The notes below the pieces were generated by a model that made no database searches, was not told the origin of the DNA, and saw nothing but the letters and a program-made list of their open reading frames with translations. 64,000 bases of DNA from Candidatus Spongiisociaceae bacterium (GTDB lineage Bacteria; Actinomycetota; Acidimicrobiia; Spongiisociales; Spongiisociaceae): assembly GCA_965202665.1 (NCBI GenBank), contig OZ241841.1:1120001-1184000 (forward strand), in the 5' to 3' direction. Shown in pieces: positions 39,201 to 53,397 of the stretch; position 1 is the stretch's first letter, and each line of letters starts with the position of its first letter. The translations under genes and the position numbers were made by a program.

Positions 39201-42200
39201 TTGGTTAACCGGCCCAAAGAGGCGGGAATGGAACCGGTCAGCCGGTTGTCATGCAGATACAACAACGCCAAATTGGACAGGTTGCCCAAAGTGGAGGGAA
39301 TGGTTCCGGTCAGCTGGTTGCCGGACAGGACCAGCGTCGACAGGCGGGGTATGTTACCCAACCGAACCGGGATTTCGCCGGACAGATCGTTGTTGTGCAG
39401 GGTCAGCCAGGTCAGATTGGCCAGATCGACCACTCCGGCCGGGATCTCCCCCGACAGATCGTTGTATTGCAAAGACAACTGATTCAATCTGGTCAAAGAA
39501 CCGATCCCAGACGGAATGGAGCCGGTCAACCCGTTGCCTTCCAGAGTCAGTATGATTAAGTTGGTGAGGCTGGTGATCCCTGAGGGAATGTTCCCAGTCA
39601 ACCGGTTGTTTTCCAGCTTCAGTTGAATCAGGTTGGTCAGGGCGCCTATCTGGGAGGGAATAGAACCGGTCAACCGGTTGTTTTGTATTTGCAGGTTCCG
39701 TAAACTGGTGAGGCTGGTAATCGTAGCAGGAATACTCCCGGTCAACCGGTTGTTGCTCAGTGACAGCCATTCCAGGCCGGTCCAAGAATTGATTCCGGTG
39801 GGAATGTTCCCGGACAACCGGTTGTTGGACAAAATAAGGTGGGTCAGGGTAGCCGAAACGGAGGGTATGGAACCGGTCAACTGGTTGCTGCTCAGATTCA
39901 ACCTGTGCAAGGCGGTCATGGAATTGATTCCGGAGGGGATGGAACCGGACAACCGGTTGTTGTCCAGATGCAGTCGGGACAGGCTGGTCAAACTGGTTAT
40001 CCCAGAGGGGATGGCCCCCGACAACTGGTTGCCGGACAAGATCAGATTTACCAAACCAGTCAGGCTGGTAATCCCAGAAGGTATGGAACCGGTCAACCGG
40101 TTGTTGCCCAGATGAAGTTCGGTGAGGGCGGTCAGCGAACCAATCTGCGACGGGATTGCGCCGGACAGGCGGTTGCCCGTCAAATTAAGGCTTGTCAAAC
40201 CGGTCAGCAAACCGATCTCGGTGGGAATGGTCCCGTACAGGTACTCGTCCGTCGTCCTGGGTTGGAGAGACAGGCGGGTCACCCGGGTCCCGGTGGCCCT
40301 AACGCCCGGCCAGCCCGGCGTGATGTTGATTTTGGCGGCGGGGTCTCCGCTCCCCCAGGAACGCAACGGATGGTCGGCGGGGAGTCCGCCTTCGGCGGCG
40401 GGGCGGGCGTTGTCCGCGTTGCCCAGCCAATGGTTTCTGATAGCGACCAAAGCCCGGCAGTCAGCCACCAGAAGGGCGTTGCTACCGGGGTTGTCCACAT
40501 AGGTCCCGTCGGCGCAAGCGGCCGGGTCCAGGGCGGTGAGGGCGCCGTCGTTGCCGGCGATGGTCACCACCGCATCGGTCACCGTCGTGGAAGACAGGGA
40601 GCCGGACAGCGAACCGGAAACGGTGATCGTTTCGGCGCCTTCGGCCGCCGTGTCCGGTCTAACCGTAATGCTGAAAGTGGTGGTCCCGGTGGTTGCCCCG
40701 GCGGCTAGGGAAATAGCGGCCGGGGCGGTGGCGGTGAAATCTTTAGCAGGGCCCCGTTCCGCTTGGCCGGCCCCGGTTCCGCCCGCCACCGAAACCGTAA
40801 CCGTGGTTCCCCCCGCCGGTGCGACCACCCCGGCGGGCAGGGTGGCGGTGACGGTGATGGCTTGCGTGTTGTCGGCGCTGTTTTCGGTAAGCACCGCCGG
40901 GGAGACGGTGAGGGTTGCCGTCGGGTCGGTGATGGTCAACTTAACCGGGTTGACGGTCAACCCGGCGGCTTGGCCGGAAACGGTCAACGTCTCCGCCCCT
41001 TCCCCGGCCGTGTCCGACGAAATGACCAAACCGAACCGGACGGAAGCGCTGCGGGAACCGGCCGGGATGGTCACCGCCAGGTTGTTGCGCGGTTGGAAGT
41101 CCACCCGGGGGGTGGCCGTATCCCCGGCGACCGCCCCCACCGACGCGTTGATTACCGTGTCCTGGTCGCGGGCCTTGGAATCACCCGCGAAGGCGGCTCG
41201 CAAAGTGATAATTACGGACCGGGACCCGTCGGGGGATTCGGCCACGGTGGCGGGGGACAGGGACAGGTCGATGGCGGTGGGAGCGGGGTCGCTGGCCGGA
41301 ATGGTGAACGTAGCCGGTTGCACCGCGTATCCAGACCCTTCCCCGGCCGAACCGGTGAGGGTGATGGTTTCGGCGTCTTCAGTTGTCCGATCGTTGTCCA
41401 CGGCGATGGCGAGGTCGGCGGTGGCGGAACGGGTGTTGGCCGGAATGGTGATGGTCACCGTCTCGGGAGCGGTGTAATCCCCGGCGACCGCCTCATCCAC
41501 CTCGGCGGTGTCCGGGTCATCGGCCCGGCTGCGGGTGGCCGTATCGTCCGTCTTCCCCACCGTTACGGTGACCGTAACCGGGTCGGCGGGCGTGGTCACC
41601 CCGGCCGCGTATTCGGCGGTCACGGTGGCCGAAACCGAATCGCCCTCCCCGGCTTGGTTGGGAGAGACGGTGAGCGTAATCCCCTTATCGTTGTCGGTGA
41701 TGGTAAAGAAGGTGTTGTCAACCGTGTAGGAGCCCCCCGCCACGGTTCCCACCAAGCTGACGGTCTCCGAACCTTCCCCAGGTGTCTCATCGTCGATGAC
41801 ATTCAAAGCGAAAGCGGCTGAGCCGCTCCTCTGTCCGGCCGGAATCACGATGCGGAGGGTTGCGACGGCCTGGTAGTCCTGCCCGCGGGTAGCGGTGCTG
41901 GCCAACGTGGCCTGCTCGCCGATGGCGACGTCCACCACCGTCCGGGAGCTGACCGGGACGGCGTCGTCCGGGAAAGCGGCCGTAACCGTAACGGTGCGGG
42001 CCCCGACGTCCTCCGCTGCGAAAGTCTGCGCTCCGGAAATGTCCGGGTCAAGGTCAACGGCCAACGCCACCCGTTGCGGAGTTTCGTCGGCGTCGGTCAG
42101 GGTTACGGTTCTGCTGGCGGGGGAGACGGTCAACCCTTCGGGCTGGACTATTTTGACCGTTATCGTTTCCGAAGCCCCCGCCCCAGTCTCGTCCAGCTGG

Positions 42201-45200
42201 TCGGCGGTTCCCGACAGGCTGAAAACGGACGAGCCTTGCGTCTCCCCGGCTGGGATGATCACTGAAAAATCGGCCACCGGCTGATAATCCGTCCCCGCCT
42301 GAGCCGTGTCCCGCTCCACCACATTCATGGTGGCCGGATCATCGGCGTCCCCCACTTTGAAGCGAACCGCCGTAGCCCCGGTGCGCGCCCCGCCGGTGAG
42401 GGAAGCGGTTACTTTCACCTCTATGTCGGAGGGGCTTTCCTGAACCGAGGTCGGGCTGAGGATCCATGTCACTCCGGTGGGGGTGGATTCGTCGTCCACG
42501 ATCCCTATCCGGGCGGACACGATCGGCAACGAACCGGATTCGCCGACCACCGACAAAAATTCCACCGACTCGGAGGCGGAATCGTCCGTAGGCGTCAGTT
42601 GCAATGCGACCGAGGAGCTCCGTTTCCCGGCCGGAATGACAATCGCCAAGTTGGAAAGTCCCCCCTCCGCCGTCGCCGTGTAATCAGTGTTAGCCGTCGC
42701 CGAATCGCCCGTCGCCCCCACCGTCAACGACACCGTTGTGTCCCGCTCCGACAGGTTGCCGCCCGAACCTCCGTATTCGGGCCGGGTGGCGGTTACGGTC
42801 ACCTCGGTGAGCCCGTCTTCTTCGCCCACCACCGCCGGGGAAACGGTCAACACCACCCCCTGGGCGCACGCCTCCGCCCGCCGCGCCCCGGAGGGCAACC
42901 CGACCAGCTCCACTTCGGAAAGGAGCAAAGCGGGCACGGGCCCGGTGATCCCGTTGCCGCAGAAACCGAACCGGGACAAAGAGCCGCCCGCCGTAGCCGA
43001 CAAACTTACCAGGGCGGCGGGGAAGGGCCCGGTGAGCAAGTTGCCGGAAACCAAAAGCGTCTCCAACTTGGTCAAAGAACCCAAAGAAGTAGGCAGGGAA
43101 CCGGTAAGCCGGTTGCCGGACAGATCCAGGTAGGCGATGTCCTCCAACACTTCCAGTCCGGTGGGGAAGGCGGTGGTCAGCCCAATCCCGTTCAGATCCA
43201 AATAGGTTATTTCATCCAATGCGGACGGCCACTGCGCGAGACCGGCCGGGTAGAAGTTCGGGTTGCCGCCCAAATCCAAATGGGTGAGTCCCCTCACCCG
43301 GATGAGAGAAGTGGGAATACCGCCGGTCAACCCGTTGTCGCCCAACATCAGCTTCTCCAAACGGGACAGATCTCCTATATCGGCGGGGATGGCACCGGTG
43401 AGCCGGTTGCCGCCCAAATCGAGAACCCGCAAATCGGCCAACGAAGTCAAAGCGGCCGGGATGGAACCCGTAAACTGGTTGCCGCCCAAATCCAACATCG
43501 TCAAACCGGTGAAACCCCCCAACGCGGCCGGGATGGAGCCGGTAAGCCGGTTGCCGCCCAAATCCAACATCGTCAAACCGTCCCAACCGTCCAATGAGGC
43601 CGGGAGGGGGCCCCGCAACCGGTTCCCCGACAAATCCAAAGTAATCAAATCCAAACTCCCCAAGCTGGCCGGGAAGGAACCGGTCAACCGGTTATTGGAC
43701 AAATTAAGATAAGCCAGGTCTGCCAACCCCGTCAAACGGGGCAAATTCCCCGAAAAGTTGTTGCCGGAAAGATCAAGACGCTCCAAACCAGCGAACTTGC
43801 CCACCCACGACGGGACCGTCCCCGTCAGTTTATTCCCAGACAAATCCAAATCGGTCAAAGACCACAATCCATTTCTTCTGCCGTTATCGGTTAGCGGGGA
43901 GAAATTCCACGGGAACCCTCCGGTGAGTTGGTTGTCGCTCAGGTCGAGTTTCTCCAACTTGGTCAAAGAACCCAATAAGCCGGGCAGGTGGTCGCTCAAC
44001 TGGTTGCCGGACAAATCCAAAAAGGTCAGATCGGTGGAACGGAATTCCGGCACAGAACCGGTAAAGCCGTTTCCGGACAAGTCCAAGTGGGATAACTTGG
44101 TCAAAGAGTCCAAGAAACCGGGCAGGGGACCGCTCAACTGGTTGCCGGACAAATCCAAAAAGGTCAGAATGGTGGGACTGAAATTCGGCACAGAACCGGT
44201 GAAGCCGTTTCCGGACAGGTCCAAGTGGGTGAGGTTGGTGAAGGATATCACCTCGGAGGGAAAGGCCCCGGTGAGTCCGGTGTCGGACAGGTCAATTACG
44301 GACAAGTTAGCGTCCAGCGCGCGGCGCCTAGCCAGCTCCTCGTTCTGCCTGTCGGTGGGGGGGTTGGACAAGACCACTCCCGATATGTTGACATCCAGTC
44401 CGGTCGGCCACGAAGTCAACGAGTTGCCGCCCACTCGCAACTCGACAAGGCCGGTCATTTGAGTCACGTCCAAAGACCTCAAAGATAAGTAGTTGTCGGA
44501 CAGGTCCAACTTGGTCAAACCGCTTCGCAGAACTCCGGACGGGAGGGAGCCGGTCAAACGGTTGCCCCCCAAGTCCAGGCTGGTCAAAGCCGACAAATCG
44601 CCAATCTGGGCCGGGACCGTGCCTGAGATCCGGTTCGCCTCCACCTCGGTGCTGGGAAGGATGGGAACCGCCCGCGTGGCGGTGTAGTAGAAGCCAAGCT
44701 GGGGACTACAATTCGGGAGAAAGATGAGGTCGCTTTGATCTGGGTTTTGGCATGTTACGGTGATGGAGTCGACCGGTACCAAACCTTCCAGTCCCTGGTT
44801 GCGCAGGTTTAGTCCCGTTACCCGCAAAACGCCCCCGACTCTTTCCAAAGTCACCCCCGGCCATATTCGGATGTCCCGGGTTCCGAACCTGCTCTCCAAC
44901 ACACTTTCGCTCAGGCGGGTGGCGGAAAGGACCGGGGGGCTCCAAGGGGCGTATCCGATCGCCCCCCAGGCGCGGAGCACATGGGTTTCATCTATGTTTT
45001 TGGTACCTTGGGTTTCGTCCACATTGGGCGTGCTCGGATCGTCGGGGGTGTACGGAATGTCCACCGGCAGGTTCCCGTTGAGGGGGTTGTTGGTGAAATG
45101 ATTACGGATACCGACCAACGCCCGGCAATCCGCAATCAACAGGGTGTTGGACGTATCTTCCACGAAGGTTCCATCGGCGCACAACGCCGAGTCCAACGGC

Positions 45201-48200
45201 GTAATAGAACTGTCATCATCAACGATTGTTATCGCGAACTCGGATGGGTAGACCTTGAACCCGGTCGGGGGGGTAACCACTCGCAACAACACCGTCTTTT
45301 CCCGCTCTATGTCAGCGTCCTGGGGGACCGCCACCGTCACAGTCGTCGCACCAATCGTTTGGCCAGATGCAATAGTCAAATCAACATTGCCCGTCAAAGC
45401 CGTATAATCATTAGCAGACGCAAGCGCAGAACCATCCGCCAAATTCAACGACAAAGTTACCGGGCTCGTTTCCTGGCCATCCGGCAACGTAGCCCCTACC
45501 GTTATCGTCTCCGATCCGCCTTCCGCTACTCTACTCGGGGTAATGGACAACTCAACCGCCTTCCCCGTTTCGTTATCCTCGATTGCCACCTCCGCCTCCG
45601 ACACCCCCAACACTCCCCACGAACCAATCGCCACCCCCTGCGGACTCCCCACCTGCGCCGACTCCAGCCCCTCCCAGGTCGCGTCGTCCGTCACCGATAA
45701 AACAAACACGCCGCTCCCCGCCAACTTGCCCGCCGGGATGGTAATAGTGAAATTAGGAACCGTCGCAAAATCACTCCCAGCCGTCGCCGACCCGCCGCCC
45801 ACCGACACCGGCACCACGATATCCCCTTCCGGCCGCGCCGGTTGACCCGGCCCCCCGAACCCGGCCAGCGTCGCCGACACCGAAATCCGCGTCTCGTCAT
45901 CGCCCTCCGCCACTAGCGACGGGCTCACCGACAACTCCACCCGGCTTTCCCTGTCCACCACCGTCACCTCCACCGGTTCCACCACCCTCATCCAAGGACC
46001 TGCTGAAAATCGAGCCTCCCCGGTAATCGTCACCACCTCCGGACCTTCAAACAATTCATCTTGCTTCGCCCGAATTCGAACCCTCGTTCCAGCCGCCCAA
46101 TTCCTGGTTGTCCCAAAATATTGAGTATTGCCGGACCAACCGTGGACATCGGCCGAATCAGCCACCGACCACCTTACATGCGTAAAACCGGGATAGGCCG
46201 GTTGCCCAGGTCCCCCAAACCCAAACAACCCTCCCGTAATGAAAGGATTAAAATCTTCCCCCTCCCGCACGAAGTTCCTGGGGAGGGCAAACCAGACCCA
46301 TTGCTCGTCATCCAACACCCTCACCAGCGTCCCGGCATCGTGCGTCGCCTGCAACCGCCCCCCCGCAACCGCCACCCCATCCGCCGGGCCCACCACCGCC
46401 AACCATTCATCCCGCTCCCGTAAAGAATCATCCACCGTCTCCAACCGGAAAGCGCCCGTCCCGCTGGTCGAACCGGCCGGAATCGTAACCGTGAAATCAG
46501 GAACCGCTTTATAATCACCCGGCCCGGCGACGCCGCCCGTCACCGACACTCCCGCCGACCCGCCAGCCACTGACACCGGCACCGCCACATCCTCCGTGGG
46601 CGCCGCCGGCTTCCCCGCCCCTCCGAAACCAACCAACTCGGCGGTAACCGTCACCGTCGCCGACACCCCCTCATTCACAGAACCGGGACTTACCCTCAAC
46701 TGCACCCGGCTGTCCTCATCCAAAACAAACAACTGCTCCCCGAACACCAGCAACCCGGCGGACACCCCCGACACGTTCGCAAACTCCGAACCTTCGAACA
46801 AAGCGTCGGGCGCCCCCGTCAGCCAAAAACTCCCCTTCCCGCTCGCCGAGCCCGCCGGAATCGTAACCGTGAAATTATCCACCGCGCCGCTCTCGCCCCT
46901 CCCCTGGTAATCAGCGGCCGCCGCCGTGCCGCCCGCCACCGACACCGTCACCACCGTATCCGTCCCGGGCAAGCCCGGCTCCCCCGCCCCTCCGAACCCG
47001 ACCAACTCGGCCGTAACCTCCATCAACTCCGTGTCCCCCTCCGCCAAGCTGTCCGAGGTCAGCCGCAACGCCACCCCCCGCCGGCAACCCGCCACCCCCT
47101 CCGCCTCGTCATAACCGGGCAACGTCGTCCCCGAACCCAACCCGGCGGGCAGAGAACCGGTCAAGCCGTTGCCGCAGAACCCGAACTCAGCCAGAGAAGA
47201 CAGGCCTCCCAACCCGGCGGGGATGGAACCGGTCAGGCGGTTGCCGCTCACATCCAATGCGGCCAGGGCGCTCAGCGAGCCGAGAGAAGACGGAATCTGG
47301 CCGGTGAACCCGTTGTCGCTCAAGTCCAAGCCGGTTAGGGAAGTCAAAGAACCCAACGCAGAGGGGATGCTCCCCGACAGGCGGTTGCCGCCCAAATCCA
47401 AACTCGTCAAAGAAGACAAACCGCCCAAACCCACCCCCGACAACCCGCCGCTCAACCGGTTGCCGCCCAAATCCAAACTCGTCAAAGCCGTCAACCCGCT
47501 CAAAGACGGAATCGCATCCGACAAGCGGTTCCCGCCCAAATCCAAACTCGTCAAAGAAGACAAAGCATTCAACGCCGGAATCTCACCCGACAACCTATTC
47601 CCACCCAAATCCAAACTCGTCAAAGAAGACAAAGCATTCAACGCCGGAATCTCACCCGACAACCTATTCCCACCCAAATCCAAACTCGTCAAAGAAGACA
47701 AAGCATTCAACGCCGGAATCTCACCCGACAACCTATTCCCACCCAAATCCAAACTCGTCAACCCCGACAAAGAACCTATCTCGCTCGGGACGCTGCCCGC
47801 CAAAGCCGCGTCCGACAGATCCAATCCGGTAACCCTCCCGCCGGCCGTCGTCACCCCCGGCCAAGAATCCACCAGCCCGCTCCCCCACAAACGCAACGAA
47901 TGATCGGCGGGGAGTCCTGCGTTGTCCGGATTGCCCAGCCAATGATTGCGGATCGCTACCAGCTGTCGGCAGTCGCCGACCAACGCCGCGGCCGAGCCGG
48001 GGCTGGTCACCCAAGTCCCGTCCGAACAATTGCCGGAACCCAAAGCGGCCGCCTCCCCGTCGTTGCCCAAAATGGTCACCGTCGCCGGGGACACCACCCG
48101 GCCCGCCGCCACGCCCGCAATGGTTATGGACTCGGCCCCCTCCGCCTCCGAATCGTCGTTCACCGTAAAATTAAGAGAGACCGAACCGCCGTCCTGCCCC

Positions 48201-51200
48201 GCCGGAATGGTGATCCGAAACGGGTTGGGACGAGCCACCGTGAAATCCTTGCCCTCCCCCTCCTCCGCCTGGCCCGAGCCGGAACCACCGGTCGCCGTCA
48301 GCTCCACCACCACCGGCGAATCCGCCGGAGCGGACTCCCCCACCGGCAAAGTGGCGGTGACGACAACCGAAGTCTGGGCGGAATCCTCCTCCAGCGCCGC
48401 CGGGGCGGCCGACAAAGCCACCACCGAATCATCATCGTACAAGGCGACGGAAACCGGGATTACGCCGAAGGTAGCGGCCGAACCGGAAAAGGTCACCGCC
48501 TCCAAACTTTCCCGGCTCCGGTCATCCACCGGGGACAAAATCAAATCCAAAGAACCGCTTCTTTGCCCGGCCGGGATGGTGACCGTGAAAGGCCCCGTCC
48601 CGCCTTCGCCGTCCGTCAACGTGAAATCCGACCCGGGGGTGGCCGAACTGTCGGCGGTGGACAAGGAAACCGTCACCGCCGACTGCGACCGTTCCACGCC
48701 CTCCCGCAAAGCGGCGGTTACCGTTAAGGGCGTCGGCCCATCGTCTTCCGTCGCCGACGGCTGGCTCGCCGACAGCACGATGTCCGCTCCGTCGTCGTCC
48801 GCGATGGTCACCGACGGGTCGCCCGCCGCCAGGGCGGAAGTCGTTATCCCGCCGCGGGTGAAAGTGTAAACCGGGGAGAAAGGCTCGAAAGGCTCCGCCA
48901 CTCGGATAAACAGCCTTTCATTGCCCTCCGACGCCTCGTCATCGGCGACAGTCAGGTTGAAAGAAGCCGAACCCTCGTTGGCCCCGGCGGGAATGGTGAT
49001 CGTGAAATGCCTAGGCGAAGCCGTGAAATCGGATCTGCCGGCGGTGTCCTCCTTCACCGACACCGGAACCGTGAGGGGCGTAACCCGCACCGGCTCGCCC
49101 GGCAAGGTCACCCCCGGCGCCGAACCGGGCAGATAGGCGGTGACCGTCACCTTGGTGGTTCGGGAAGCCGCCCCGGAACCGCTGTCCTCGCTGATCCGAT
49201 ACGGATCCACCAAAAAGTTGATGCGCTGATCGTCATCGTTGATAACCACCGCAATAGTGGAAGTCTCCAAACCCGGCGCCGCCGCCGACGCCTCGAAAAA
49301 CTCATACCCCTCCGCCAAATCGTCCTCGATCAGCGTCACATCCAAAGAACCGGAAACGGTGCGGGTGTTCTGGGGCAAAGTAATCACCCGCCGGTTGGCA
49401 GCCGAGAAATCGCTCCCCCAAGTCGCCGTGCCGCTCGCCACCGAGACAGTAATCTCCGTGTCCTGCGCCAGCAGGGCTACCCCCGACGCCAAACCCACCT
49501 CGTAACTCAACTGAACCGAACCCGCCGCCTCGTTCAAAAACAGCGGGGTGATTGAGAAAAACAACTCATCGTCGTTGTCGATGATAAGGACTTCGGTGGC
49601 GTGCACCGCAAACCCGGTCAGGCCGCTGTCCGTCTCCGGCGGGATGGAACCGGTAGCCGGGCCGGGGGAGGCCGTCGTCTCATGTCCGATGATCCGCACC
49701 CGCTCATCCCCCTCCGCCAACGCGTCATCCACCACCGCCAAATTGAAGGAACCCGACGCCCTGACCGCGTTGGCGGGAATGGTGATGTTGAAATTTTCCA
49801 CCGCCGCGTAGTCGTCCGGGGCCGTTGCGTAACCGGCGTGGTTCGCCAACCCCACCGACACGGTAACCGGATCGGCGCGGGAAGCCCCGTCCGCGTATTC
49901 GGCGGTAACCGTCACTCTGGTGGTTCCGCTGTCCTCCCCCACCCGCGACACATCCGCCTGCAAATCAATAGCCGGGTCCTCTGCGGCAACCGGATCGTCG
50001 TCGGCGATGGAAATGAACGAAGGGGCGATGCTGAAACCGGTCGCCGAAGCGGACACTTTGATGGTCTCATCATCGTTGTCGGCGTCGGAAGCGGTGACCA
50101 GCGTGAACTCTTTGCTCGCCCCCGTTGATGAGGTAAACGGAGCGGACGGGCTGGCCGTAATTTCGATGGTGGCGGACGCCGGCGTGAAATCCGCCCCCTC
50201 CGCCGAACCCCCCGCCGTTGTTCCGTCCGCCGCCAAAGACACCGCCACCGAAACGTTTTCGGTAATCGGATCCGCCCCCGCCGGCAACGTGGCCGTCGCC
50301 GTCAAAGTGGTGGTGGAACCTTCCGTCACCCGGGATGGGGAAACCGCCACCTGCAACGTGCGGGGAGTGGGCGTCGGGGTGGTGGAAACGCCGGGGTCGG
50401 TTATAGCCACCGCGATCGGAGCGGCGAAGCGGAAAACGGATACGGGCGTGAAAGTGTCCGCCTCCATCGTCTCCCCCGGGTTGTCCGGGTCGGGCACGTC
50501 CGCATCCCGTTGCGAAACCGAAATCACCCCCAACTCCACGTTCTCCCCCGCCTCGGCCGCCTCGTCCGCCCACGAAGTCAGGGTGAAAGCGGCCGAACCG
50601 CTGCGGGAACCGCCTTCGATGTCAACATCAAAATCGGCCACCGTCTGGTAATCCGCCCCCGGCGCATCGGAGTCCGCCCCCGCCGTCGCCGTAGAAGAAC
50701 CCAACACTCCCACCCGCACCCGCAAATCCTGGGTCAGAGGGTCGGTTCCGGAAGGCAGGGAAGCGGTAACCTCCACTTCGGCCGCCTCCCCTTCCGCCAC
50801 CGACGTCGTATCAGCCGACAAAGAAATCAGGTTGTCGTCGTCCAGGATGGACAGGTAAGCGGAATAGACGTCGAACCGATCCGTTGTCCCGTGCACCGCC
50901 ACCCGTTGCCGAACCTCCGGTATCGCATCATCGACGGGGGTGAAAGTGAACTGGCCGGTGCCGGAACGGGCGTGATCGGGGATGGTGATGGTGAACCCGG
51001 GCACCTCCGCAAACTCCCCGCTCTCCGCCGCCACGGTTACCGCCACCGCGGTGGCCGTCGTTTCAACTCGGCCCTCCGGCAGGGAAGCGGTCACGGTGAT
51101 GGTATGCGACAAATTGCCCTCTTCCGCCTCGCTGCCTTCCGTCACCTCCGTCTTGTCCAAGGAGAGACGGATGGCGGAGTCGTCGTCGAGGATGGTGAGG

Positions 51201-52471
51201 GTTGCGGAATTGACGGGCAACTTCGGGTAGGCGTCGCCCCCTACGGTTGTGGCCCGGGTGAACCCGGTCACGGTCAAAGTCTTATCCGAATGGGCATCCG
51301 TGTTGCTGGTGATGGGAAGGTTGAAGGTGGCGGAACCCTGTTGGCGATAGGCGGGGATGGTGACGGTAAACGGGGAGGGGATGACGTAATCGGTTCCGCC
51401 CACCGCCGTGTCGCCGTCCGCCCCCACCCGAACGGTTACCTCGGTGGCGACCGGGCGCCGCTGCTGCCTTTCCGGAAAAGCGGCGGTCACTTGCACCGCC
51501 GCCGTCCCCGCCTCCTCCTCCACCGTCGCCTGATCCAAGCTCAGGTTGACGGAGACCGGAGCGGTAATGTCGCCTTCGTCATCCGCAATCGTCACCGCCG
51601 TCCCGGTGACGGTACCGCTCCCCAGCCCGGAGTCGGCGACGCTTCCGGAAACCGTCGCCGACCGGTCGGCCGCCTGCAGGGTGAAATCGTCAACCGGGGT
51701 TAAATCGAATTTGGCGGTACCGCTGGTCTGGCCCGCCGGGATGGTAATGCTCAACTCAGAATCGTCCACCGTCTGGAAATGGGTTCCTTCCGTGGTGCCC
51801 GCCCCCGCCCCCACGCTCAAATCCACGGTCAGCGCATTTGGGCCGGCATGATGGAGTTCGGCGGTGACCGTCACCTCCTCCGTACCGCCTTCCTCCGCAA
51901 CCTCGTCCGGCGAAACGCTGAGGGACGCGCTGTTGTCTTGGTCCACGATCGTAACCAACAGGGGCTCAACCGACACGGAGGACGCGCTGTGGGAGCCGAC
52001 CACTCGGAAAACCTCCGGACCCTCCACCAAAGTGTCTGCCAACGGTTGATAAGAAACTACGGTATTCCTCTTCGTGCCTACCCCCTCAGTCCCATCCAAA
52101 GTAACAGTGGCGACCGTACCGGCAACCCTGTAATCTCCGGTAAAACTAATTGCCGTGGCAGCAGGCAGGGAAGAAAGCAAACCTCCGCCATCCGCGAGAG
52201 TGAGGGTAAGCGTTCCCGCCGGCACTCCGCCCGGCAACTCAACTTCGATTGGCAGTTCGAGGATGGGGCCGCCAGTTGCCGGCTCCGACACTGAAATCTG
52301 CTTGGCATAGACCCCGCCCGTCGCGGTGGTGGGTCGGAAACGCAGGGTTATCTGTCCGGGGGACTGCGCCTGCGCCGAAGGGTGGGGCAGGGCGGGGAAC
52401 AGCGAAACCACCAAGCCGAGCACGACCAACAAGGCAAGCCAGCGAATTCCAGGTTTGACGCCGATGGTCAT
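21275..52471 (-). CDS. Giant (10,398 aa) secreted SLH-anchored surface protein with Calx-beta-like repeats and four plant-type LRR modules
   Basis: Signal peptide ..RWLALLVVLGLVVSLFPALPHPSAQA; recurring TA..G.DY / IPAG..SG / DD..EG.E / TI.DDD; LxxLxLxxNxLsGxIP repeats; PT linker; SLH motifs (F.DDEGSVHE..I..GIT.GC, FCP..ITRRQM, VTRADMA, YCP..VTRAQMASF). Confidence 0.93.
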   Translation of the reverse strand: MTIGVKPGIRWLALLVVLGLVVSLFPALPHPSAQAQSPGQITLRFRPTTATGGVYAKQISVSEPATGGPILELPIEVELPGGVPAGTLTLTLADGGGLLSSLPAATAISFTGDYRVAGTVATVTLDGTEGVGTKRNTVVSYQPLADTLVEGPEVFRVVGSHSASSVSVEPLLVTIVDQDNSASLSVSPDEVAEEGGTEEVTVTAELHHAGPNALTVDLSVGAGAGTTEGTHFQTVDDSELSITIPAGQTSGTAKFDLTPVDDFTLQAADRSATVSGSVADSGLGSGTVTGTAVTIADDEGDITAPVSVNLSLDQATVEEEAGTAAVQVTAAFPERQQRRPVATEVTVRVGADGDTAVGGTDYVIPSPFTVTIPAYRQQGSATFNLPITSNTDAHSDKTLTVTGFTRATTVGGDAYPKLPVNSATLTILDDDSAIRLSLDKTEVTEGSEAEEGNLSHTITVTASLPEGRVETTATAVAVTVAAESGEFAEVPGFTITIPDHARSGTGQFTFTPVDDAIPEVRQRVAVHGTTDRFDVYSAYLSILDDDNLISLSADTTSVAEGEAAEVEVTASLPSGTDPLTQDLRVRVGVLGSSTATAGADSDAPGADYQTVADFDVDIEGGSRSGSAAFTLTSWADEAAEAGENVELGVISVSQRDADVPDPDNPGETMEADTFTPVSVFRFAAPIAVAITDPGVSTTPTPTPRTLQVAVSPSRVTEGSTTTLTATATLPAGADPITENVSVAVSLAADGTTAGGSAEGADFTPASATIEITASPSAPFTSSTGASKEFTLVTASDADNDDETIKVSASATGFSIAPSFISIADDDPVAAEDPAIDLQADVSRVGEDSGTTRVTVTAEYADGASRADPVTVSVGLANHAGYATAPDDYAAVENFNITIPANAVRASGSFNLAVVDDALAEGDERVRIIGHETTASPGPATGSIPPETDSGLTGFAVHATEVLIIDNDDELFFSITPLFLNEAAGSVQLSYEVGLASGVALLAQDTEITVSVASGTATWGSDFSAANRRVITLPQNTRTVSGSLDVTLIEDDLAEGYEFFEASAAAPGLETSTIAVVINDDDQRINFLVDPYRISEDSGSGAASRTTKVTVTAYLPGSAPGVTLPGEPVRVTPLTVPVSVKEDTAGRSDFTASPRHFTITIPAGANEGSASFNLTVADDEASEGNERLFIRVAEPFEPFSPVYTFTRGGITTSALAAGDPSVTIADDDGADIVLSASQPSATEDDGPTPLTVTAALREGVERSQSAVTVSLSTADSSATPGSDFTLTDGEGGTGPFTVTIPAGQRSGSLDLILSPVDDRSRESLEAVTFSGSAATFGVIPVSVALYDDDSVVALSAAPAALEEDSAQTSVVVTATLPVGESAPADSPVVVELTATGGSGSGQAEEGEGKDFTVARPNPFRITIPAGQDGGSVSLNFTVNDDSEAEGAESITIAGVAAGRVVSPATVTILGNDGEAAALGSGNCSDGTWVTSPGSAAALVGDCRQLVAIRNHWLGNPDNAGLPADHSLRLWGSGLVDSWPGVTTAGGRVTGLDLSDAALAGSVPSEIGSLSGLTSLDLGGNRLSGEIPALNALSSLTSLDLGGNRLSGEIPALNALSSLTSLDLGGNRLSGEIPALNALSSLTSLDLGGNRLSDAIPSLSGLTALTSLDLGGNRLSGGLSGVGLGGLSSLTSLDLGGNRLSGSIPSALGSLTSLTGLDLSDNGFTGQIPSSLGSLSALAALDVSGNRLTGSIPAGLGGLSSLAEFGFCGNGLTGSLPAGLGSGTTLPGYDEAEGVAGCRRGVALRLTSDSLAEGDTELMEVTAELVGFGGAGEPGLPGTDTVVTVSVAGGTAAAADYQGRGESGAVDNFTVTIPAGSASGKGSFWLTGAPDALFEGSEFANVSGVSAGLLVFGEQLFVLDEDSRVQLRVSPGSVNEGVSATVTVTAELVGFGGAGKPAAPTEDVAVPVSVAGGSAGVSVTGGVAGPGDYKAVPDFTVTIPAGSTSGTGAFRLETVDDSLRERDEWLAVVGPADGVAVAGGRLQATHDAGTLVRVLDDEQWVWFALPRNFVREGEDFNPFITGGLFGFGGPGQPAYPGFTHVRWSVADSADVHGWSGNTQYFGTTRNWAAGTRVRIRAKQDELFEGPEVVTITGEARFSAGPWMRVVEPVEVTVVDRESRVELSVSPSLVAEGDDETRISVSATLAGFGGPGQPARPEGDIVVPVSVGGGSATAGSDFATVPNFTITIPAGKLAGSGVFVLSVTDDATWEGLESAQVGSPQGVAIGSWGVLGVSEAEVAIEDNETGKAVELSITPSRVAEGGSETITVGATLPDGQETSPVTLSLNLADGSALASANDYTALTGNVDLTIASGQTIGATTVTVAVPQDADIEREKTVLLRVVTPPTGFKVYPSEFAITIVDDDSSITPLDSALCADGTFVEDTSNTLLIADCRALVGIRNHFTNNPLNGNLPVDIPYTPDDPSTPNVDETQGTKNIDETHVLRAWGAIGYAPWSPPVLSATRLSESVLESRFGTRDIRIWPGVTLERVGGVLRVTGLNLRNQGLEGLVPVDSITVTCQNPDQSDLIFLPNCSPQLGFYYTATRAVPILPSTEVEANRISGTVPAQIGDLSALTSLDLGGNRLTGSLPSGVLRSGLTKLDLSDNYLSLRSLDVTQMTGLVELRVGGNSLTSWPTGLDVNISGVVLSNPPTDRQNEELARRRALDANLSVIDLSDTGLTGAFPSEVISFTNLTHLDLSGNGFTGSVPNFSPTILTFLDLSGNQLSGPLPGFLDSLTKLSHLDLSGNGFTGSVPEFRSTDLTFLDLSGNQLSDHLPGLLGSLTKLEKLDLSDNQLTGGFPWNFSPLTDNGRRNGLWSLTDLDLSGNKLTGTVPSWVGKFAGLERLDLSGNNFSGNLPRLTGLADLAYLNLSNNRLTGSFPASLGSLDLITLDLSGNRLRGPLPASLDGWDGLTMLDLGGNRLTGSIPAALGGFTGLTMLDLGGNQFTGSIPAALTSLADLRVLDLGGNRLTGAIPADIGDLSRLEKLMLGDNGLTGGIPTSLIRVRGLTHLDLGGNPNFYPAGLAQWPSALDEITYLDLNGIGLTTAFPTGLEVLEDIAYLDLSGNRLTGSLPTSLGSLTKLETLLVSGNLLTGPFPAALVSLSATAGGSLSRFGFCGNGITGPVPALLLSEVELVGLPSGARRAEACAQGVVLTVSPAVVGEEDGLTEVTVTATRPEYGGSGGNLSERDTTVSLTVGATGDSATANTDYTATAEGGLSNLAIVIPAGKRSSSVALQLTPTDDSASESVEFLSVVGESGSLPIVSARIGIVDDESTPTGVTWILSPTSVQESPSDIEVKVTASLTGGARTGATAVRFKVGDADDPATMNVVERDTAQAGTDYQPVADFSVIIPAGETQGSSVFSLSGTADQLDETGAGASETITVKIVQPEGLTVSPASRTVTLTDADETPQRVALAVDLDPDISGAQTFAAEDVGARTVTVTAAFPDDAVPVSSRTVVDVAIGEQATLASTATRGQDYQAVATLRIVIPAGQRSGSAAFALNVIDDETPGEGSETVSLVGTVAGGSYTVDNTFFTITDNDKGITLTVSPNQAGEGDSVSATVTAEYAAGVTTPADPVTVTVTVGKTDDTATRSRADDPDTAEVDEAVAGDYTAPETVTITIPANTRSATADLAIAVDNDRTTEDAETITLTGSAGEGSGYAVQPATFTIPASDPAPTAIDLSLSPATVAESPDGSRSVIITLRAAFAGDSKARDQDTVINASVGAVAGDTATPRVDFQPRNNLAVTIPAGSRSASVRFGLVISSDTAGEGAETLTVSGQAAGLTVNPVKLTITDPTATLTVSPAVLTENSADNTQAITVTATLPAGVVAPAGGTTVTVSVAGGTGAGQAERGPAKDFTATAPAAISLAAGATTGTTTFSITVRPDTAAEGAETITVSGSLSGSLSSTTVTDAVVTIAGNDGALTALDPAACADGTYVDNPGSNALLVADCRALVAIRNHWLGNADNARPAAEGGLPADHPLRSWGSGDPAAKINITPGWPGVRATGTRVTRLSLQPRTTDEYLYGTIPTEIGLLTGLTSLNLTGNRLSGAIPSQIGSLTALTELHLGNNRLTGSIPSGITSLTGLVNLILSGNQLSGAIPSGITSLTSLSRLHLDNNRLSGSIPSGINSMTALHRLNLSSNQLTGSIPSVSATLTHLILSNNRLSGNIPTGINSWTGLEWLSLSNNRLTGSIPATITSLTSLRNLQIQNNRLTGSIPSQIGALTNLIQLKLENNRLTGNIPSGITSLTNLIILTLEGNGLTGSIPSGIGSLTRLNQLSLQYNDLSGEIPAGVVDLANLTWLTLHNNDLSGEIPVRLGNIPRLSTLVLSGNQLTGTIPSTLGNLSNLALLYLHDNRLTGSIPASLGRLTNLQRLHLDDNQLSGTIPSSLGELAYSPYRTGGALRWFSFCGNNLSGNLPSDLLSEWVRVEDSTADAGFIYGPFSPRLRSVADCRRAVQLSVDPQTAAENAAPDPVITVTASLVGFSGAGQPALPTSATTVTVNPSGGSAAAPGDYAAVDPFEIVIPAGQTSAKATFTLNLENDAIAEADETLRITGSVDDIAVVGTSFVITDDDGSAPTTASLTVSPATVTEGSTTNITVTAAFPADSATRSSDTSISLTLSNGTAMAGTDFTTVTGQRITIPQGSRTGSVSFNLTTAENSAAAADKNFTITGTLASFTISPATVTIANNDAHAPLDWNICNTTAVVGSSPSRTRVSQCEALVSIRNHWTGNLANAGLPSTHKLLRWGTGTTEALGSWPGVTLTGDWVTTLDLSNASVGASSIAGTIPSYFTHLASLTNLNLQYNRLTGDIPINLPRSLVQLRLNNNDLTGTIPVALGGLSRLNYLDISNNRLTGNIPAELVNTALDDGTASNRLLICENGFTGPIPSSLRNMQLLGYSASQSTTYNAVISEVSDSACLDENDAVTLSVSPSTISEGVSTMATVTAQLGGGNTASPGGLVVRVSTFTGSGTGDATSGTDFTPASVDLVIPAGASRASAQMNLSVLDDVTQESLERFSIMGTSDSHKVIGATVTIPANDQNAVGIREMEWSLDKYRVTEGEADATHTFTLTLSVPDDRRPYASDYSIAFGVTQSHDTLTHQSDYSSWSATPHNFVTLPANQRSVTVSIVLNLKADNLAEGDETFSIYHYITHRTSPPLMTTPTSAYLPELTITVADSPADSVVTLVADTSSASGIQTTAVEQAMAHSVSVTASLPSGVTAQRPLAIPLTVSPGTAQAADFTASAPGSITIAAGQSSGTASFNLTASTDSDQLEPDETVIVSGSAANFTVNPATITIPAFDKIISVGLSAESEEARSNRPWITVGRAQTENGNTVASNVTVSTNAVVPTGRTVMSSFTIATNQNRSSTRHAVPIRSGNDPQPNFNDQVVNTVPRNVMLTGTATGGYVVRPASAPIGDDEWSRRPTGIELTADVTELNENDVVNTAVTVTASLVRDGGSPAGLDVDVEVPLEVRSGTAFAGSDFQVVDADGDPAPSTAAITITSGQTSGTAVIHIKPIRDKVLEGDESLWIRAVSTPGPFGEFEFRDDIDPLQVTVTDYSRIFLTFSQLSVTTLQPSVTEGNGPEAIAVTAFLPAGTPVLDRDLEVRNLRLISVIASSSDYTLASPITLTIPAGQRRSASKQMTVQAVDDNIPEDGESLQFVAAVSSGYRLGDFFLTINDNDRTLDREGNPISRGPPGVRLTLSPETVSEGDEPQQVTVTAQLGTWTAAATTATYTDQGGNQQSATCADPDEFGAVHCSYTIGAGAQARVTQVSNQPSFTAFTAGLPRDLAVRVELKAAAARSGLVPAGVGSDFTVPLPVVITIPAGQTQASADFLLDVKKDGLSEPSETIKVDGTALDPPTGFSLFDKPMFIEANRGPTFTLSVAPITVSEGAGTATVQVNATVDKVAQEGYQVPAPDVDNADGDGNPDTNPKCDNAQQGSSFVYVTYDPGPDGDLLTDDDLTRCVEFRTRQVTVPGAVPDVDTPIRVSVGTEGDTAVEGTDYTAVPDFTFVFPAGRRTASTTFSLPVIDDRLPEESDKLLTITGSDPLTGSSPDYIPQSIINNGTLSIIDDDDLAVNLKVDTASVEEDSGTTAVGVTVSLAGGAVLSSPIGVAVRVRGADETACTADEDAGRLHCPSQAGQALARTDYANVSDFTLTIPAGQNAVTGSFNLTVTDDRLVEGAERVVVSAGFRDQIVTHNLVINDNDDPPTDLVLTLTPALLTADGVDVPEPEGWVGRTYLVTAAPPADQGFLTSTATVTLSVAGGTASANDFQVTYLPRNTLQVPAYTAQIGPAHQTIVSITVPSDANLEGPESLIISGTATGDLQVAPVTMTIVDDPRSPVDAVNITLDRSEVGEGDGTVPVTVTAQFYCQRAGACPTLAEDRTVALELSDQGRATEGVDFTLETATVTIPAGKHVGKTTVQLRVSDDRVVEGDESITVTGSIFGGYRVGKATLLIIDDEQAAGELDLRFSRGTVSEGDGRVPLVLTAGWPAGLSVTSDTEVTAVLNRGSAAAGIDYELLERERLTLTIPAGRSSVSVKAGELRLVDDQVAEEVETFEAFGFAQAAGDGDPVRYKVNPAVLRIADDDTVAVKLTVDQEYVLEGWDWEVNDRLEFDAEAEVAYVRSAQRHIVRSSFSTACRVTGVDDDNAPVFNENCTDDAFKQDALRDVPEISVTASLTGAEGADGVRDRDTVVRVAVGNEDDTATAGEDYIVYDGFQEDGFLYIIIPAGESAVSSSFRILTTDDNVAGETERSEVGSLPNGIPIMDISITESLSITGVVTKEQGTDPSISTEGTELEIWDLSDQVPTVLDFTLSPLRVVEGDAGYTARVTVTAAIAGTPLSSELEDTVLAADLAVPLLLSSNVDDDGNVLPGWASSGTDYGTPVQISPKPVGAGAPVVIPEGVTYQGPDPSHVDGGSEVTVVIPAGELSGKTVFDLPIVGDTITESAILFGPSGSEWLRVGTDLQGWTTEGAILEIIDDDPAPVVQLELDKTSLAEDDGSHTVRATARLVAPDGSAGTFSEDIPLLLQVVNNKSDVEEARLSAAGLANAYHDFRVSGTAQLEDDEPVTIPGNNLHASVDRSEVTEGSEVDVRLQLSFPSGAGGGGTTVTVSVGAAGDSAVAGTDYELVSAHFNSPLTITNGRFSAYAPSGSSGITVILRLRVTDDAVHEGAEVFTIGTHLGASTQLVIPANDPPPPEDSKSVTIPAGSSSASAVFDLEVVEDNLDEGAGEDIVFRAFARCPGTSNRLVSIDSNIQVVRLVLTGCEADTENADEAADEAAENVLRATRTLLGGSDPVAKLRIVDDDSVADVITLVAELGGSDSGPGVVSESAGSDQVLNVAVGFPAGSGARLADTVVTLSAENGSAGSSDYSLTFSDPDGTGPLTAGQVVIPAGETAVLARLGPAVADDPSTANVNEAQPATADFDVTEDTVAEGDETFILKGVADGFEVRPYMVTIQDTEPAAIVLTIGSDLFVQEMELAEGSASPLTLNVRAAFPASVADADLPAADTEIILGGSDGKLRVRNGAVSPAATAGDYAVQSVVLNTRDTALTLTIPGGTRSATGTIRVSLADDEIVERTENLQIVGSTSGREVSPAVIYITDNDSVLPSYDLSVSPRLVAEGATGKQWVTVTARAKGAIRLGEDAVIQLALSGTEVGGPDFEPVAAQDLRLTVPADAASGSVRFGLVMVDDNVAEGVTTTLDAVRLSGSATSPIGGEDLTVTAGPQSQVVIFDNDVAPNRIALSVPSGGLREGTGTSSVTVRAAFPAGSPVRPVDTKVSVRIGGAAENADDEAGPGDYTAPATVLVTIPAGKSSGEGSFDISLTDDLLSEEAETVTLTGQAIAPYHKPYPAFPKREFTVSHAALTITDNDEPPAFVALQVLPAPSAGAEGASGTAAARLFTGMVREGDEVTEYTVTATFGPGAARSKNTVLTFGLGGRAASSVGLTLPNGQPIIGPNGLQATITVPGDTAVKGTDFQIVDGDGDPVTGDLTVTIPSGQTRGSATFRLEVMDDTEANEPLETLTVYSTLPDDATPKFTIMPATLNIIDNDRVSEINLTLLDENDQPLESVRENVGSAVPVKVKASYPGTSVLGADTELDVYIFAGTADGKWDGTNGSAGDFSDSVDTENNPVRVTIPAGDNSATVSLTNLSFNNDEVAEADEYLTLEGTVAGTQTVDFTINRGRLTVFDDDIPVTLVVDTDTGTVGNQTDVAEADGVIEVEVTATLPDKPRTASGGTITLAFSETADANKADLGGGTGDDFQLVDASGDPLSGVDITFDDGELTSDTVTLRLKVADDRTVEPNETLAASGTSVRFSNITATAITIVDDDVDLTVDNASVDERTVTNTAAVTVTVTATIGEAAPAGGRTVALEVKDDGDYTAEPADYSANPATSPFRVEIVGGATTGTATFDLSTTDDDEAEDHETLGVAGTLSGFQVDPATVTIMDQDRGVTLTFTDSSDNALAELSEADGSQTVQAVRVRATLDASSSSLTANTTVAVTVGASGGTAGLGAAADYTRSASSVSAVIQAGQLSAAATDVNITTNSDNIAEGRETVRFTGSSAGFSVPNADLEIADPDSKIILVLSSTEVAENANATFTVTAKYGTSVTSSTISSAAAVAVTVASAASNGADLDDYSYTDTTVSIPAQAITSGAQSFALTITDDDRVDAGAGGEKNEEGLVIDGNPPDGFPDIDPVSFSIVDDDHVISWTLTLSGSPYDGGTEGDSLGSVQARASFAGAESDLTSPVTVTLNIRTDGDATAEAADLTSPGSSITFTIPAGSVSSNTAALTGYAFTQDTIAELPETVLVGGTVTDSYKLDETTLTITDDDSRITLTLTGTAEEADGNAGDASVRAAFASTAVTSEISTATVITLAFGTGDGATAEAADFTAPNTAITLTIAANSVSPTSSVALTTLAITNDTRAEGTETINVTGTVTGGLEAPGFKLPIVDDSDLDVTLIADTDNDESGDQKGVAEDQSPVVRVRARFTSATANDLAEPLVVRVTAAELSTASAVGSGTDFRAPATPVNVTIPIGAANLTGSASILTGLTLNDDQIAENSETFLITGTSTGAAAAGTVTSDTLTINDDDTDIKLSISPAAVQESADAHDITVTAAFDATSSVLTSAVTVTVQVASGDGTGAAVLGSAGPPRVGDFDTDQTNDRITISIAAGSVSNTGTFKLTAWDDSLNEGIERAKLTGSATVNGVSRQTETPMDILDGGVVVVLRDTGGNILTSLAENSGSTQVRVHVTVPVAPTSALVVGLNAIGGTAVLDAGGAPFGATEDFRVSYPAKPQGTPTGHALGVRIPAGQTTASALVTVTVNNDRIAEGAEDETILFRGGQVTINSQSLPVLDRSLGIADDDSAITLSVSGTAEEADGNAGDASITARFAGTSSVIAANTVVSLTYSVASSQATAQAADFTAPGTAITVTIPAGSTSSSGVALTNLTITNDAAAEETEKVQVGGTAAGLDVTGVLLSIADDDAQVVLSIPSNTSVSEGGNGSGVMVSAAYKSGTTSSQITSDLMITLSAADGTATLSSGDFRYSPSTPNRVTIPAGTTSSATAGTLAGLSVNHDTVSEGQETLSVGGSSPLGSATAVSLPVTDADGDIELSLSPGTVVERAAAHTITVTARYTGDTRVTRSTRTSATAVAVTVASGDGTDAASLGSGSADDFTANPTSLTVNIAAGQISGTGTFQVTAPMDGRDEGTEKAKVSGTATVDGSSRSDSVDLSLTDRAIINLSVDTDVSTGGIQSTISEGAGSARLRIQAAIPNDAVLPTSGVTVNLTVTTHYTTAGGDAVTANGTINIPAGSRTGTTDVLVSVRDDNVFGEGGGTWTISGTATDMAVVNATVTVTDDDTAPTRIELTVDPANGVMENVGTAPQTIGVKANFPAGSAVLTTATTVTVMVVSSGGNTSATVGTDFDSLTVPSPFTVTIPARERESTTAGTFTVVIRDDADRESIERIAVTGTAGGFTVTPTSLRIVDDDAVPELSIGNQTVQENAGRVTISVRLTGIPDSGFTARASTVNGTATAGNDYQAVTNQALNFVGTEGETQTFTVVIINDRNVEENESFGIRLTVPESSGVTVNSRGGTITITDNDTPSPPTGTRVITPPPSRPTAPTGPPAPTAPTGPTAPTGPTAPTGPAEPTAPGEPVAPTEPETWEGTFRDDEGSVHEDNIEVIAEEGITRGCDDRSNFCPGQSITRRQMSAFLYRAVVERSGAPAPPPSGVEFTDVPAGAWYSQYADWVTSIGAFSAPNGMFNPGGVVTRADMAVMLIAAFSHLQSVDEAENLFTDVSGLSEDVVRAIEGLYQAEITLGCSTDPLRYCPNEPVTRAQMASFFVRALNSAPS
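21850..21975 (-). repeat. Pro/Thr linker (PTGPTA)n, 18-bp degenerate repeat
   Basis: PTAPTGPPAPTAPTGPTAPTGPTAPTGPAEPTAPGEPVAPTEP between Calx-beta region and SLH. Confidence 0.85.
37560..38240 (-). repeat. LRR module 4 (~5 repeats) of the giant protein
   Basis: N-cap CNTT...QCEALVSIRNHW..WPGVT, C-cap ICENGFTG..C. Confidence 0.85.
38950..40540 (-). repeat. LRR module 3 (~17 repeats of 24 aa)
   Basis: N-cap CADGT..DCRALVAIRNHW..WPGV, C-cap FCGNNLSG..DCRR. Confidence 0.9.
42860..45200 (-). repeat. LRR module 2 (~23 repeats, with insertions)
   Basis: N-cap CADGT..DCRALVGIRNHF..WPGVT, C-cap FCGNGITG..ACAQ. Confidence 0.9.
47080..48040 (-). repeat. LRR module 1 (~10 repeats), with a perfect 69-bp tandem repeat x3.3 at 47535..47761
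   Basis: N-cap CSDGT..DCRQLVAIRNHW..WPGVT; (LSSLTSLDLGGNRLSGEIPALNA) repeats; C-cap FCGNGLTG..GCRR. Confidence 0.92.
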
Positions 52472-52576
52472 CTGATTGGGACCCCAGGTGAATTTCTAAA
52501 TTTCATTGCTGTTGTATGTTGCCCTTTCACGGCGCGGCATCCCGCCCACGCGCACAGCGCAGACGGACGAGAGAGC

Positions 52577-52604
52577 AGTATACCCCCGCCGGCGCGCCGT
52601 GCAA
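52577..52604 (-). promoter_or_regulatory. Candidate sigma70-type promoter P2 for the giant gene (TTGCAC-N16-TATACT)
   Basis: Reverse complements of GTGCAA (52599-52604) and AGTATA (52577-52582). Confidence 0.5.
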
Positions 52605-52631
52605 GAATTTTCGTCAAGTTGTATTTCCGCC

Positions 52632-52661
52632 ATTCTATAGATTGGGGGGGGGGGGTTGCAA
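52632..52661 (-). promoter_or_regulatory. Candidate promoter P1 for the giant gene with a C12 homopolymer in the spacer (TTGCAA-C12AATCTA-TAGAAT)
   Basis: G12 at 52644-52655 between TTGCAA (52656-52661) and ATTCTA (52632-52637); spacer 18 nt. Confidence 0.65.
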
Positions 52662-52802
52662 ATTTACCGCCGCCGCCCGCCCCCGCGCCGCCCCCTCAAG
52701 CCCCCGGAAGCGGGAGGGGGGCCGCCGGATTTTCGGAAACCGCGCTACGGCATATCGTAGTCCGCTGACGCATTCCGCCCCACCCCCGCCCCTCGCCTTC
52801 CG

Positions 52803-53397
52803 CCCGGGTTTTCACCGCCCGTTCCAAGAACGCGAAAAAAATATCTAAAAACCGCAAATTGCCCCTTGTTTTTTCAAAAAAGTTCCTTAATATTGGAAGT
52901 ATGGACGCGACAGCCATCCTCACCGCCGGTCAGTTTGCCGGGCTTATCGCCCTGTTCATCTTCACCTGGCGCGTGGACAAGCGCTCCGAAGAGCGCACCA
53001 ACAACGCCAGCGAGGAACTGGGAACACAGTTCCAAACGCTGTTTACCGTTCTGCAAGAGTGCCAAACCCATCTGCAAGAGGGCCAAACCCAAATCCTGGC
53101 CCGGGTGGGCAACCTGGAAATGCGAGTGGGCAACTTGGAAACCCGGATGAGCAAACTGGAGGAAGGGCAGGCCACCCTGGCCGAAGGACAGGCGGCCCTG
53201 GCCTTGGAGTGGGCCAAAGCGGAAATCCGGTTGAAGCACCTGGAGGAAAACGCGGTCACGACGCAAGGCAAAATCGACGAGATCAGCGAACTGTCCCACC
53301 AAACCAATGCCAAAACCGCCAGCCTGGACGGCCTGATACGGGGCTACTTCATCCGAGAAGGCGACATCCTCCACGAAACCGCCGCCGCCGGATAACC
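52803..53397 (+). repeat. Tandemly duplicated promoter + gene unit, copy 1 (copy 2 at ~53914..54528)
   Basis: CCCGGGTTTTCACCGCCC..CAAGAACGCGAAAAAAATATCTA..CGCAAATTGCCCCTTGTTTTTT shared, followed by paralogous CDSs. Confidence 0.88.
52901..53395 (+). CDS. Membrane-anchored coiled-coil protein (subfamily B), leaderless
   Basis: TAATAT-7nt-ATG; TM AILTAGQFAGLIALFIFTW then (LE.R.GN/L.EGQ) heptads. Confidence 0.8.
   Translation: MDATAILTAGQFAGLIALFIFTWRVDKRSEERTNNASEELGTQFQTLFTVLQECQTHLQEGQTQILARVGNLEMRVGNLETRMSKLEEGQATLAEGQAALALEWAKAEIRLKHLEENAVTTQGKIDEISELSHQTNAKTASLDGLIRGYFIREGDILHETAAAG

Follow-up and report, generated by a model that had tools for sequence, protein, structure and literature searches.

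A C12 tract in the predicted promoter of a giant surface-type protein gene of a sponge-associated actinobacterium: a candidate slipped-strand volume dial

Introduction

Phase variation driven by repeats has been studied mostly in vertebrate pathogens, where it is explained by escape from antibodies. Promoter homopolymers that tune families of surface proteins include the C-stretch of Bordetella fim, the poly-C of Neisseria opc, the poly-G of Treponema pallidum tpr/tprL and the poly-A of Mycoplasma hyorhinis vlp, all in hosts that are vertebrate pathogens. In fim, the stretch sets the distance between an activator site and the -10; the vlp genes form a paralogue family with one homopolymer per gene. 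Campylobacter, Helicobacter and Neisseria carry dozens of G/C tracts at surface and restriction-modification genes, among them switchable DNA methyltransferases; indeed, surface-protein and restriction-modification genes are the usual gene content of known contingency loci.

Closest to the case described here is porA of Neisseria meningitidis, in which a tract of 11 G is reported to give high output, 10 G about 2-fold lower and 9 G about 13-fold lower output, and unselected populations showed the expressing allele alone (PMC3639595). An actinobacterial example is espA of the Mycobacterium tuberculosis complex, where an indel in an upstream homopolymer is described as changing transcription about 2-fold (PMC10334774). 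LRR and Calx-beta domains are enriched in symbiotic Actinobacteriota in a study whose available text contains no match to the word 'phase' (PMC11706023). In the open-licence literature we found no report of such phase variation in sponge symbionts.

Here we describe a C12 tract in a 64,000-nucleotide stretch of contig OZ241841.1 from a Candidatus Spongiisociaceae bacterium, hereafter the window, to which all positions without a prefix refer. The source genome (G000) consists of one contig of 2.77 Mb with 64% G+C; G001 denotes a sister species of the same genus. Like porA, the locus has 11-12 consecutive G:C pairs between the -35 and the -10 of a surface-protein gene, the hexamers being recognized here by consensus match and the surface-type product predicted from its domains.

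Results

A C12 tract in the predicted promoter of a giant gene

On the minus strand TTGCAA, C12, AATCTA and TAGAAT follow one another, so that the spacer is 18 nt long (Table 1), exactly as the initial annotation had read it. Its placement of this element about 160 bp upstream of the giant gene was equally accurate, with 161 bp from the end of TAGAAT to the ATG (52471) of the 10,398-aa ORF, and no other homopolymer of the window is indeed as long as the tract, the runner-up having a length of 7. When positions 52300-53100 were scanned for promoter consensus, the C12 arrangement was the sole promoter-like site by consensus match (shuffled sequences gave 0.2 +/- 0.5), and transcription from it is predicted to start near 52625. 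The second promoter proposed downstream, TTGCAC-N16-TATACT, is present as a sequence but misses the threshold of the same scan. A C12 placed at random landed in such a -35/-10 spacer in 0.33% of 20,000 trials. An Rfam scan of 52300-53000 gave no matches at E up to 0.1.

Table 1. Giant gene and predicted promoter elements, in window positions
Feature	Position	Strand	Remarks
Gene for 10,398-aa protein	21275..52471	-	Hydrophobic, signal-like segment at the N-terminus; Calx-beta-like repeats; several blocks of LRR; SLH region at the C-terminus
Second candidate promoter TTGCAC-N16-TATACT, tract-independent	52577..52604	-	TTGCAC at 52604-52599, TATACT at 52582-52577; TATACT kept in G001, TTGCAC not
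Predicted -10 hexamer TAGAAT	52632..52637	-	From consensus scan; TACCAT of G001 retains T, A and the last T
C12 tract (G12 on plus strand), candidate slippage element	52644..52655	-	Two thirds of the 18-nt spacer; C12 also in the G001 orthologue
Predicted -35 hexamer TTGCAA	52656..52661	-	Matches 5/6 of the mycobacterial optimum TTGCGA and 4/6 of TTGACA; TTGCCA at the equivalent site in the G001 orthologue

Several trivial explanations were considered. Chance origin of the tract is ruled out by the genome-wide excess of such tracts, described below, together with the random-placement trials. An assembly artefact is ruled out as well, because contigs from all four public sequencing runs bridge the tract and show no indel. 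Action of the tract on the divergent gene at 52901 is unsupported: the two lie about 245 bp apart and no plus-strand promoter was found in the scan of 52300-53100.

With its SLH, Calx-beta and LRR domains and its signal-like N-terminus, the giant gene product is predicted to be exposed at the cell surface. Orthologues of 10,430-10,766 codons are present in G001 and in two further relatives, G009 and G013. Divergent from the giant gene are two paralogous coiled-coil-like genes on the plus strand (52901-53395 and 54014-54526), which encode proteins of 164-170 aa that are 68% identical; TAATAT stands 7 bases ahead of the ATG of the gene at 52901, which suggests a leaderless transcript. Elsewhere in the genome, a Calx-beta giant behind a C13 tract (G000:C1:2167845-2183334) is broken into two ORFs, of 1,537 and 3,630 codons; these share about 10 bases, and their junction contains no homopolymer.

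Long C/G tracts form a genome-wide class

The C/G tracts of G000 number 96 at a length of 8, one at 9 and none at 10, and then 24 at 11, 28 at 12, 14 at 13 and nine that are longer. Geometric extrapolation from the 6-8-mers predicts 0.15-2 tracts of at least 11, compared with 75 observed. In the sister species no tract measures 9 or 10, and 81 measure at least 11. Long tracts number 44-76 in three genomes from a sister genus, with 7-15 at lengths 9 and 10, a gap shallower than in G000 and G001. Elsewhere in the family 22 of 24 genomes contain tracts of at least 11, as do 2 of 16 genomes of the order from outside the family, with the reservation that kin are not independent and that fragmented assemblies lose such tracts. 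Two sites in G000 stand out by their form, a G33 tract at G000:C1:640404 and a C12 abutting an A13 at 2473121-2473145.

Twenty-five of the 66 G000 tracts of 11-13 lie inside TTG-N15..19-TAnnnT spacers, versus 0.33% under random placement; 24 of them are copies of one paralogous promoter, TTGACA followed by a spacer with G11-13 and a TAGCGT-like hexamer, and are thus not independent. The twenty-fifth is the C12 of the giant gene, which differs in type and has its C on the coding strand. Spacers in the poly-G family measure 15 nt (8 promoters), 16 nt (11) or 17 nt (5), and 23 of the 24 lie ahead of an SLH gene. The lone TTGACA poly-G promoter that does not, at G000:C1:846185, stands in front of a short ORF and a gene of the methylase-HNH type. 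Overall, 27 of the 49 SLH ORFs in G000 have a tract at their 5' end, as do 27 of the 35 that reach at least 1000 aa. The three largest SLH ORFs (8,083, 10,406 and 12,734 codons from stop to stop) are all of the poly-C kind, and three of the four poly-C Calx-beta giants have the poly-C in or beside a TTG..TAnnnT arrangement.

At least 17 other tracts lie inside methyltransferase, HsdS or Type ISP frames, many of them out of frame; this count is a lower bound from 52 and 18 scanned segments. In the restriction-modification genes, tract lengths of 11-13 span all three frames. Long tracts are therefore in excess at surface and restriction-modification genes, as expected of contingency loci, and the giant-gene tract likely belongs to a genome-wide set of 75 such loci at SLH promoters and restriction-modification genes.

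Some of the individual arrangements deserve mention. A tandem cluster of Type ISP restriction-modification genes (G000:C1:1215500-1233000) holds 11 C/G tracts. A type I HsdS region contains two C tracts, at G000:C1:1870408 and 1871045, one just past the start codon and the other about 640 bases on; such a pair could switch both expression and specificity. Further tracts lie in HmaB-like and N6/N4 methyltransferase genes (G000:C1:331506, 390586, 2606199, 598959, 2263994, 2444737 and 2758626), several of them right behind the ATG; in the assembly most are out of frame, and these genes are candidate switchable methylation systems.

The giant-gene tract is constant in the majority while some other tracts differ by one base

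Contigs from all four sequencing runs, which come from four studies, carry G12 at the giant-gene tract as the majority sequence. Those of runs X3, X4 and X6 equal the window over 901 bases and may represent source data. The X12 contig, from a diverged strain with 9 letter differences and one gap over 675 bases, also reads G12. The contigs of the four runs, the diverged strain included, accordingly contain no length variant; because contigs drop rare variants, this result describes the majority allele. With G12 in 4/4 runs, switching at the giant-gene locus is something that we infer.

As a positive control, four sequencing runs (X3, X4, X6 and X7) were compared with a 17.5-kb restriction-modification region containing 11 tracts. 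Four of the nine listed indels are a gain or loss of one C exactly at tracts of at least 11, and tracts make up less than 1% of the region. At the level of contigs, and with the following caveats, length polymorphism is focused on the tracts as in contingency loci. Coverage was 2 of 30 bins for X4 and 12 of 30 for X6, so that only X3 and X7 were informative. An X3 piece of 4,825 bases without any substitution has a single extra C in the C13 tract at G000:1232112, which is in frame within a Type ISP gene, and the five other tracts bridged by the listed X3 pieces show no change; X3 may be the source sample, and long-read consensus error could therefore explain the C13/C14 difference. Two of the other three tract indels are on minor contigs at duplicated flanks, and one is in a contig with 10 SNPs and a 19-base flank. 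In the same region, contigs of X6 and X7 skip 6 kb of the Type ISP cluster. The tract class thus appears mutable, with its giant-gene member held at 12 in the majority.

The repair background was surveyed in five genomes. NucS was found in all five and MutS_I in none, at a completeness of 91-96%. Mycobacterial NucS does not repair indels; their rarity is ascribed to polymerase proofreading, and rates at a 4-G tract were very low (PMC7015689). Given proofreading and these low 4-G rates, a high rate of slippage at 12-mers is likewise something that we infer. The stochastic switching suggested for this protein therefore stands in part: the tract belongs to a non-random, conserved class in which other members vary by one base, and MutS was not found in the genomes surveyed, but the G12 itself was invariant in 4/4 runs.

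Relatives retain the tract but not one geometry

The G001 orthologue is preceded by TTGCCA-C12-AATCCTC-TACCAT, with a spacer of 19 nt, and by a downstream TATACT. Identity between G000 and G001 is 31/41 around the tract (the tract itself excluded) versus 72/133 upstream, 27/44 in the proximal block and 49/99 in the leader. Since the same C12 is combined with a 19-nt spacer in G001, spacer geometry is not conserved. The orthologues of G013 and G009 have G11 tracts upstream, at differing positions and in differing orientation and with no clear -35/-10 around them, which further weakens the case for a single conserved geometry. The downstream TATACT is also found at an 11,483-codon paralogue in G001, and TATAGT occupies a like place in G013.

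TTGACA-type promoters of G001 have spacers of 15 nt (13 cases), 16 (9), 17 (2), 18 (3) and 19 (2), in an examination of 67 of the 81 tracts. The poly-C giants of G000 and G001 taken together have spacers of 17, 18, 18, 19 and 19 nt. Among named genomes, a related poly-G promoter was found in 22 stretches, 19 of them in one Candidatus Spongiisociaceae bacterium record; these 19 copies may not be independent of the G001 set and were counted once. The other three matches fall in an unrelated low-GC MAG and have a different arrangement. In that MAG (L093, L094 and L113) a -10-like hexamer accompanies repeated TTGACAAATT-G8/9 elements, a comparable design outside the present lineage. A scan of JGI metagenomes for the giant-gene promoter with any tract length gave five matches, all of them unrelated and with no blastn match to G000. 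The window stretch itself is represented by at least half of its words in 16 of the 24 listed public sequencing runs, whose labels include sponge and marine metagenome; none of the 24 is an RNA data set, which has no bearing on whether the gene is expressed.

Spacer length points to an expressing state at C12

Promoter-like pairs in 979 tract-free upstream regions of G000 most often have a spacer of 17 nt (52 pairs), followed by 18 (33) and 16 (26) over a background of about 18, with 19 (16) at background level, statistics that are rough because the self-trained gene caller misses AT-rich genes and misplaces some starts. TTG..TAnnnT pairs in the G000 upstream regions are also frequent at a spacer of 11 nt (58 counts), a peak probably due to a repeated element. 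For the mycobacterial polymerase, the highest activity is reported with TTGCGA and a spacer of 18 bp (PMC1616969). The earlier proposal that losing one C would create the optimal 17 nt is thus half right, in that 17 is the modal length but 18 comes second, at 33 over a background of about 18, and TTGCGA-N18 is the mycobacterial optimum. Because 18 nt is both the second-commonest length above background in G000 and optimal in mycobacteria, C12 is probably already an expressing state; a C11 tract would match or modestly exceed its output, and that of C13 would be low. The same comparison suggests that the poly-C giants, at 17-19 nt, are on by default and that the poly-G family, mostly at 15-16 nt, is low by default.

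Discussion

From the sequence and non-random position of the element, its retention in the sister species, the one-base differences at other tracts and the finding of NucS without MutS, we consider it fairly likely that C12 is a slipped-strand 'volume dial' in a predicted housekeeping-type promoter of the giant gene, and that this usual length is already an expressing state. Gain or loss of one C would move the spacer from 18 nt to 19 (C13) or 17 (C11), and this shift would alter the amount of giant protein made. Transcription from the downstream TATACT would add a basal level, making output graded rather than on or off, and may buffer the effect of the tract. The proposal presumes that the promoter is in use, for which the conserved block in G001 offers indirect support, and that slippage is frequent in a minority of cells, and it takes the direction of the length effect from the spacer comparison.

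The proposed contribution of TATACT could be larger than this. If it carries most of the transcription, the tract, though mutable, would fine-tune output or space an upstream element, and the protein would in effect be constitutive. We regard this as unlikely, even though TATACT is kept in G001 and at its 11,483-codon paralogue, with TATAGT in G013, the majority allele is invariant, and the 19-nt spacer of G001 would be weak by the G000 profile. The -35 of the downstream candidate, TTGCAC, is not conserved, conservation within the intergenic region is highest in the distal block (31/41 versus 27/44), and poly-C recurs in or beside TTG..TAnnnT at three of four poly-C Calx-beta giants of G000, all of which argues against this account. 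The spacer data bear on the opposite polarity, in which C12 is a low or OFF state and a minority of cells turn the costly gene ON by losing one C. Seventeen is the modal spacer of tract-free upstream regions, and the poly-G family, with 19 of 24 members of G000 at 15-16 nt, resembles a design that is low by default; yet 18-nt spacers exceed background in G000 (33 versus about 18), 18 is optimal in mycobacteria with TTGCGA, and the poly-C giants of G000 and G001, at 17, 18, 18, 19 and 19 nt, centre on the permissive range. This polarity therefore seems improbable to us.

We would also give little credence to a tract without any switching role, whether as a fixed structural spacer (a rigid poly-dC:dG or G-quadruplex former) or as the neutral by-product of an expansion-biased polymerase. 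Such accounts would fit the invariance of C12 in four sequencing runs and in the sister species, and in two genomes the lengths do break off abruptly at 11, which suggests a mutational equilibrium. They fit less well with the gathering of tracts at surface-protein promoters and within restriction-modification frames, many of them out of frame, and with the length variation of other tracts. G belongs to the template strand here and to the coding strand in the 24 poly-G promoters, which likewise argues against one structural role.

Extending the volume-dial reading of the giant gene to the whole family is a more tentative step. It is possible that members of this sponge-symbiotic actinobacterial family each use about 75 slippage switches to randomize their coat and their methylation and defence systems. 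Poly-G promoters with 15-16 nt would then be low by default and on in a minority with longer tracts, poly-C promoters of the largest proteins, with 17-19 nt, would be on by default, and a mutational floor would hold the tracts at 11-13 in a NucS-only background. If true, selection by phage, host phagocytosis or innate recognition would favour the same bet-hedging in a host animal that lacks adaptive immunity, and tract-length spectra in existing deep sponge metagenomes would report which surface proteins are on.

Compared with the systems described so far, the best reading is that the giant-gene promoter would work like porA-type phase variation, as a graded dial. The two loci are alike in their invariant majority allele, and the graded output of porA serves as the model for our interpretation of the giant gene. 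They differ in the host, here a sponge-associated actinobacterium that is uncultured and in which NucS but no MutS was found; in the gene, which encodes a 10,398-aa SLH protein and has C on the coding strand and a second promoter candidate; and in the repetition of the design at about 27 surface genes of G000. The espA case shares an actinobacterial host and an upstream homopolymer; the M. tuberculosis complex tracts are about 7 bases long and outside the -35/-10 spacer (PMC10334774), as against 11-13 for those of G000 (n=75). With respect to the tract sets of Campylobacter, Helicobacter and Neisseria, the phylum and the habitat are different, and the gap at 9-10 with a floor at 11 was seen here in two genomes. 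The mechanism is thus already known; it is the host lineage and the scale that are unusual.
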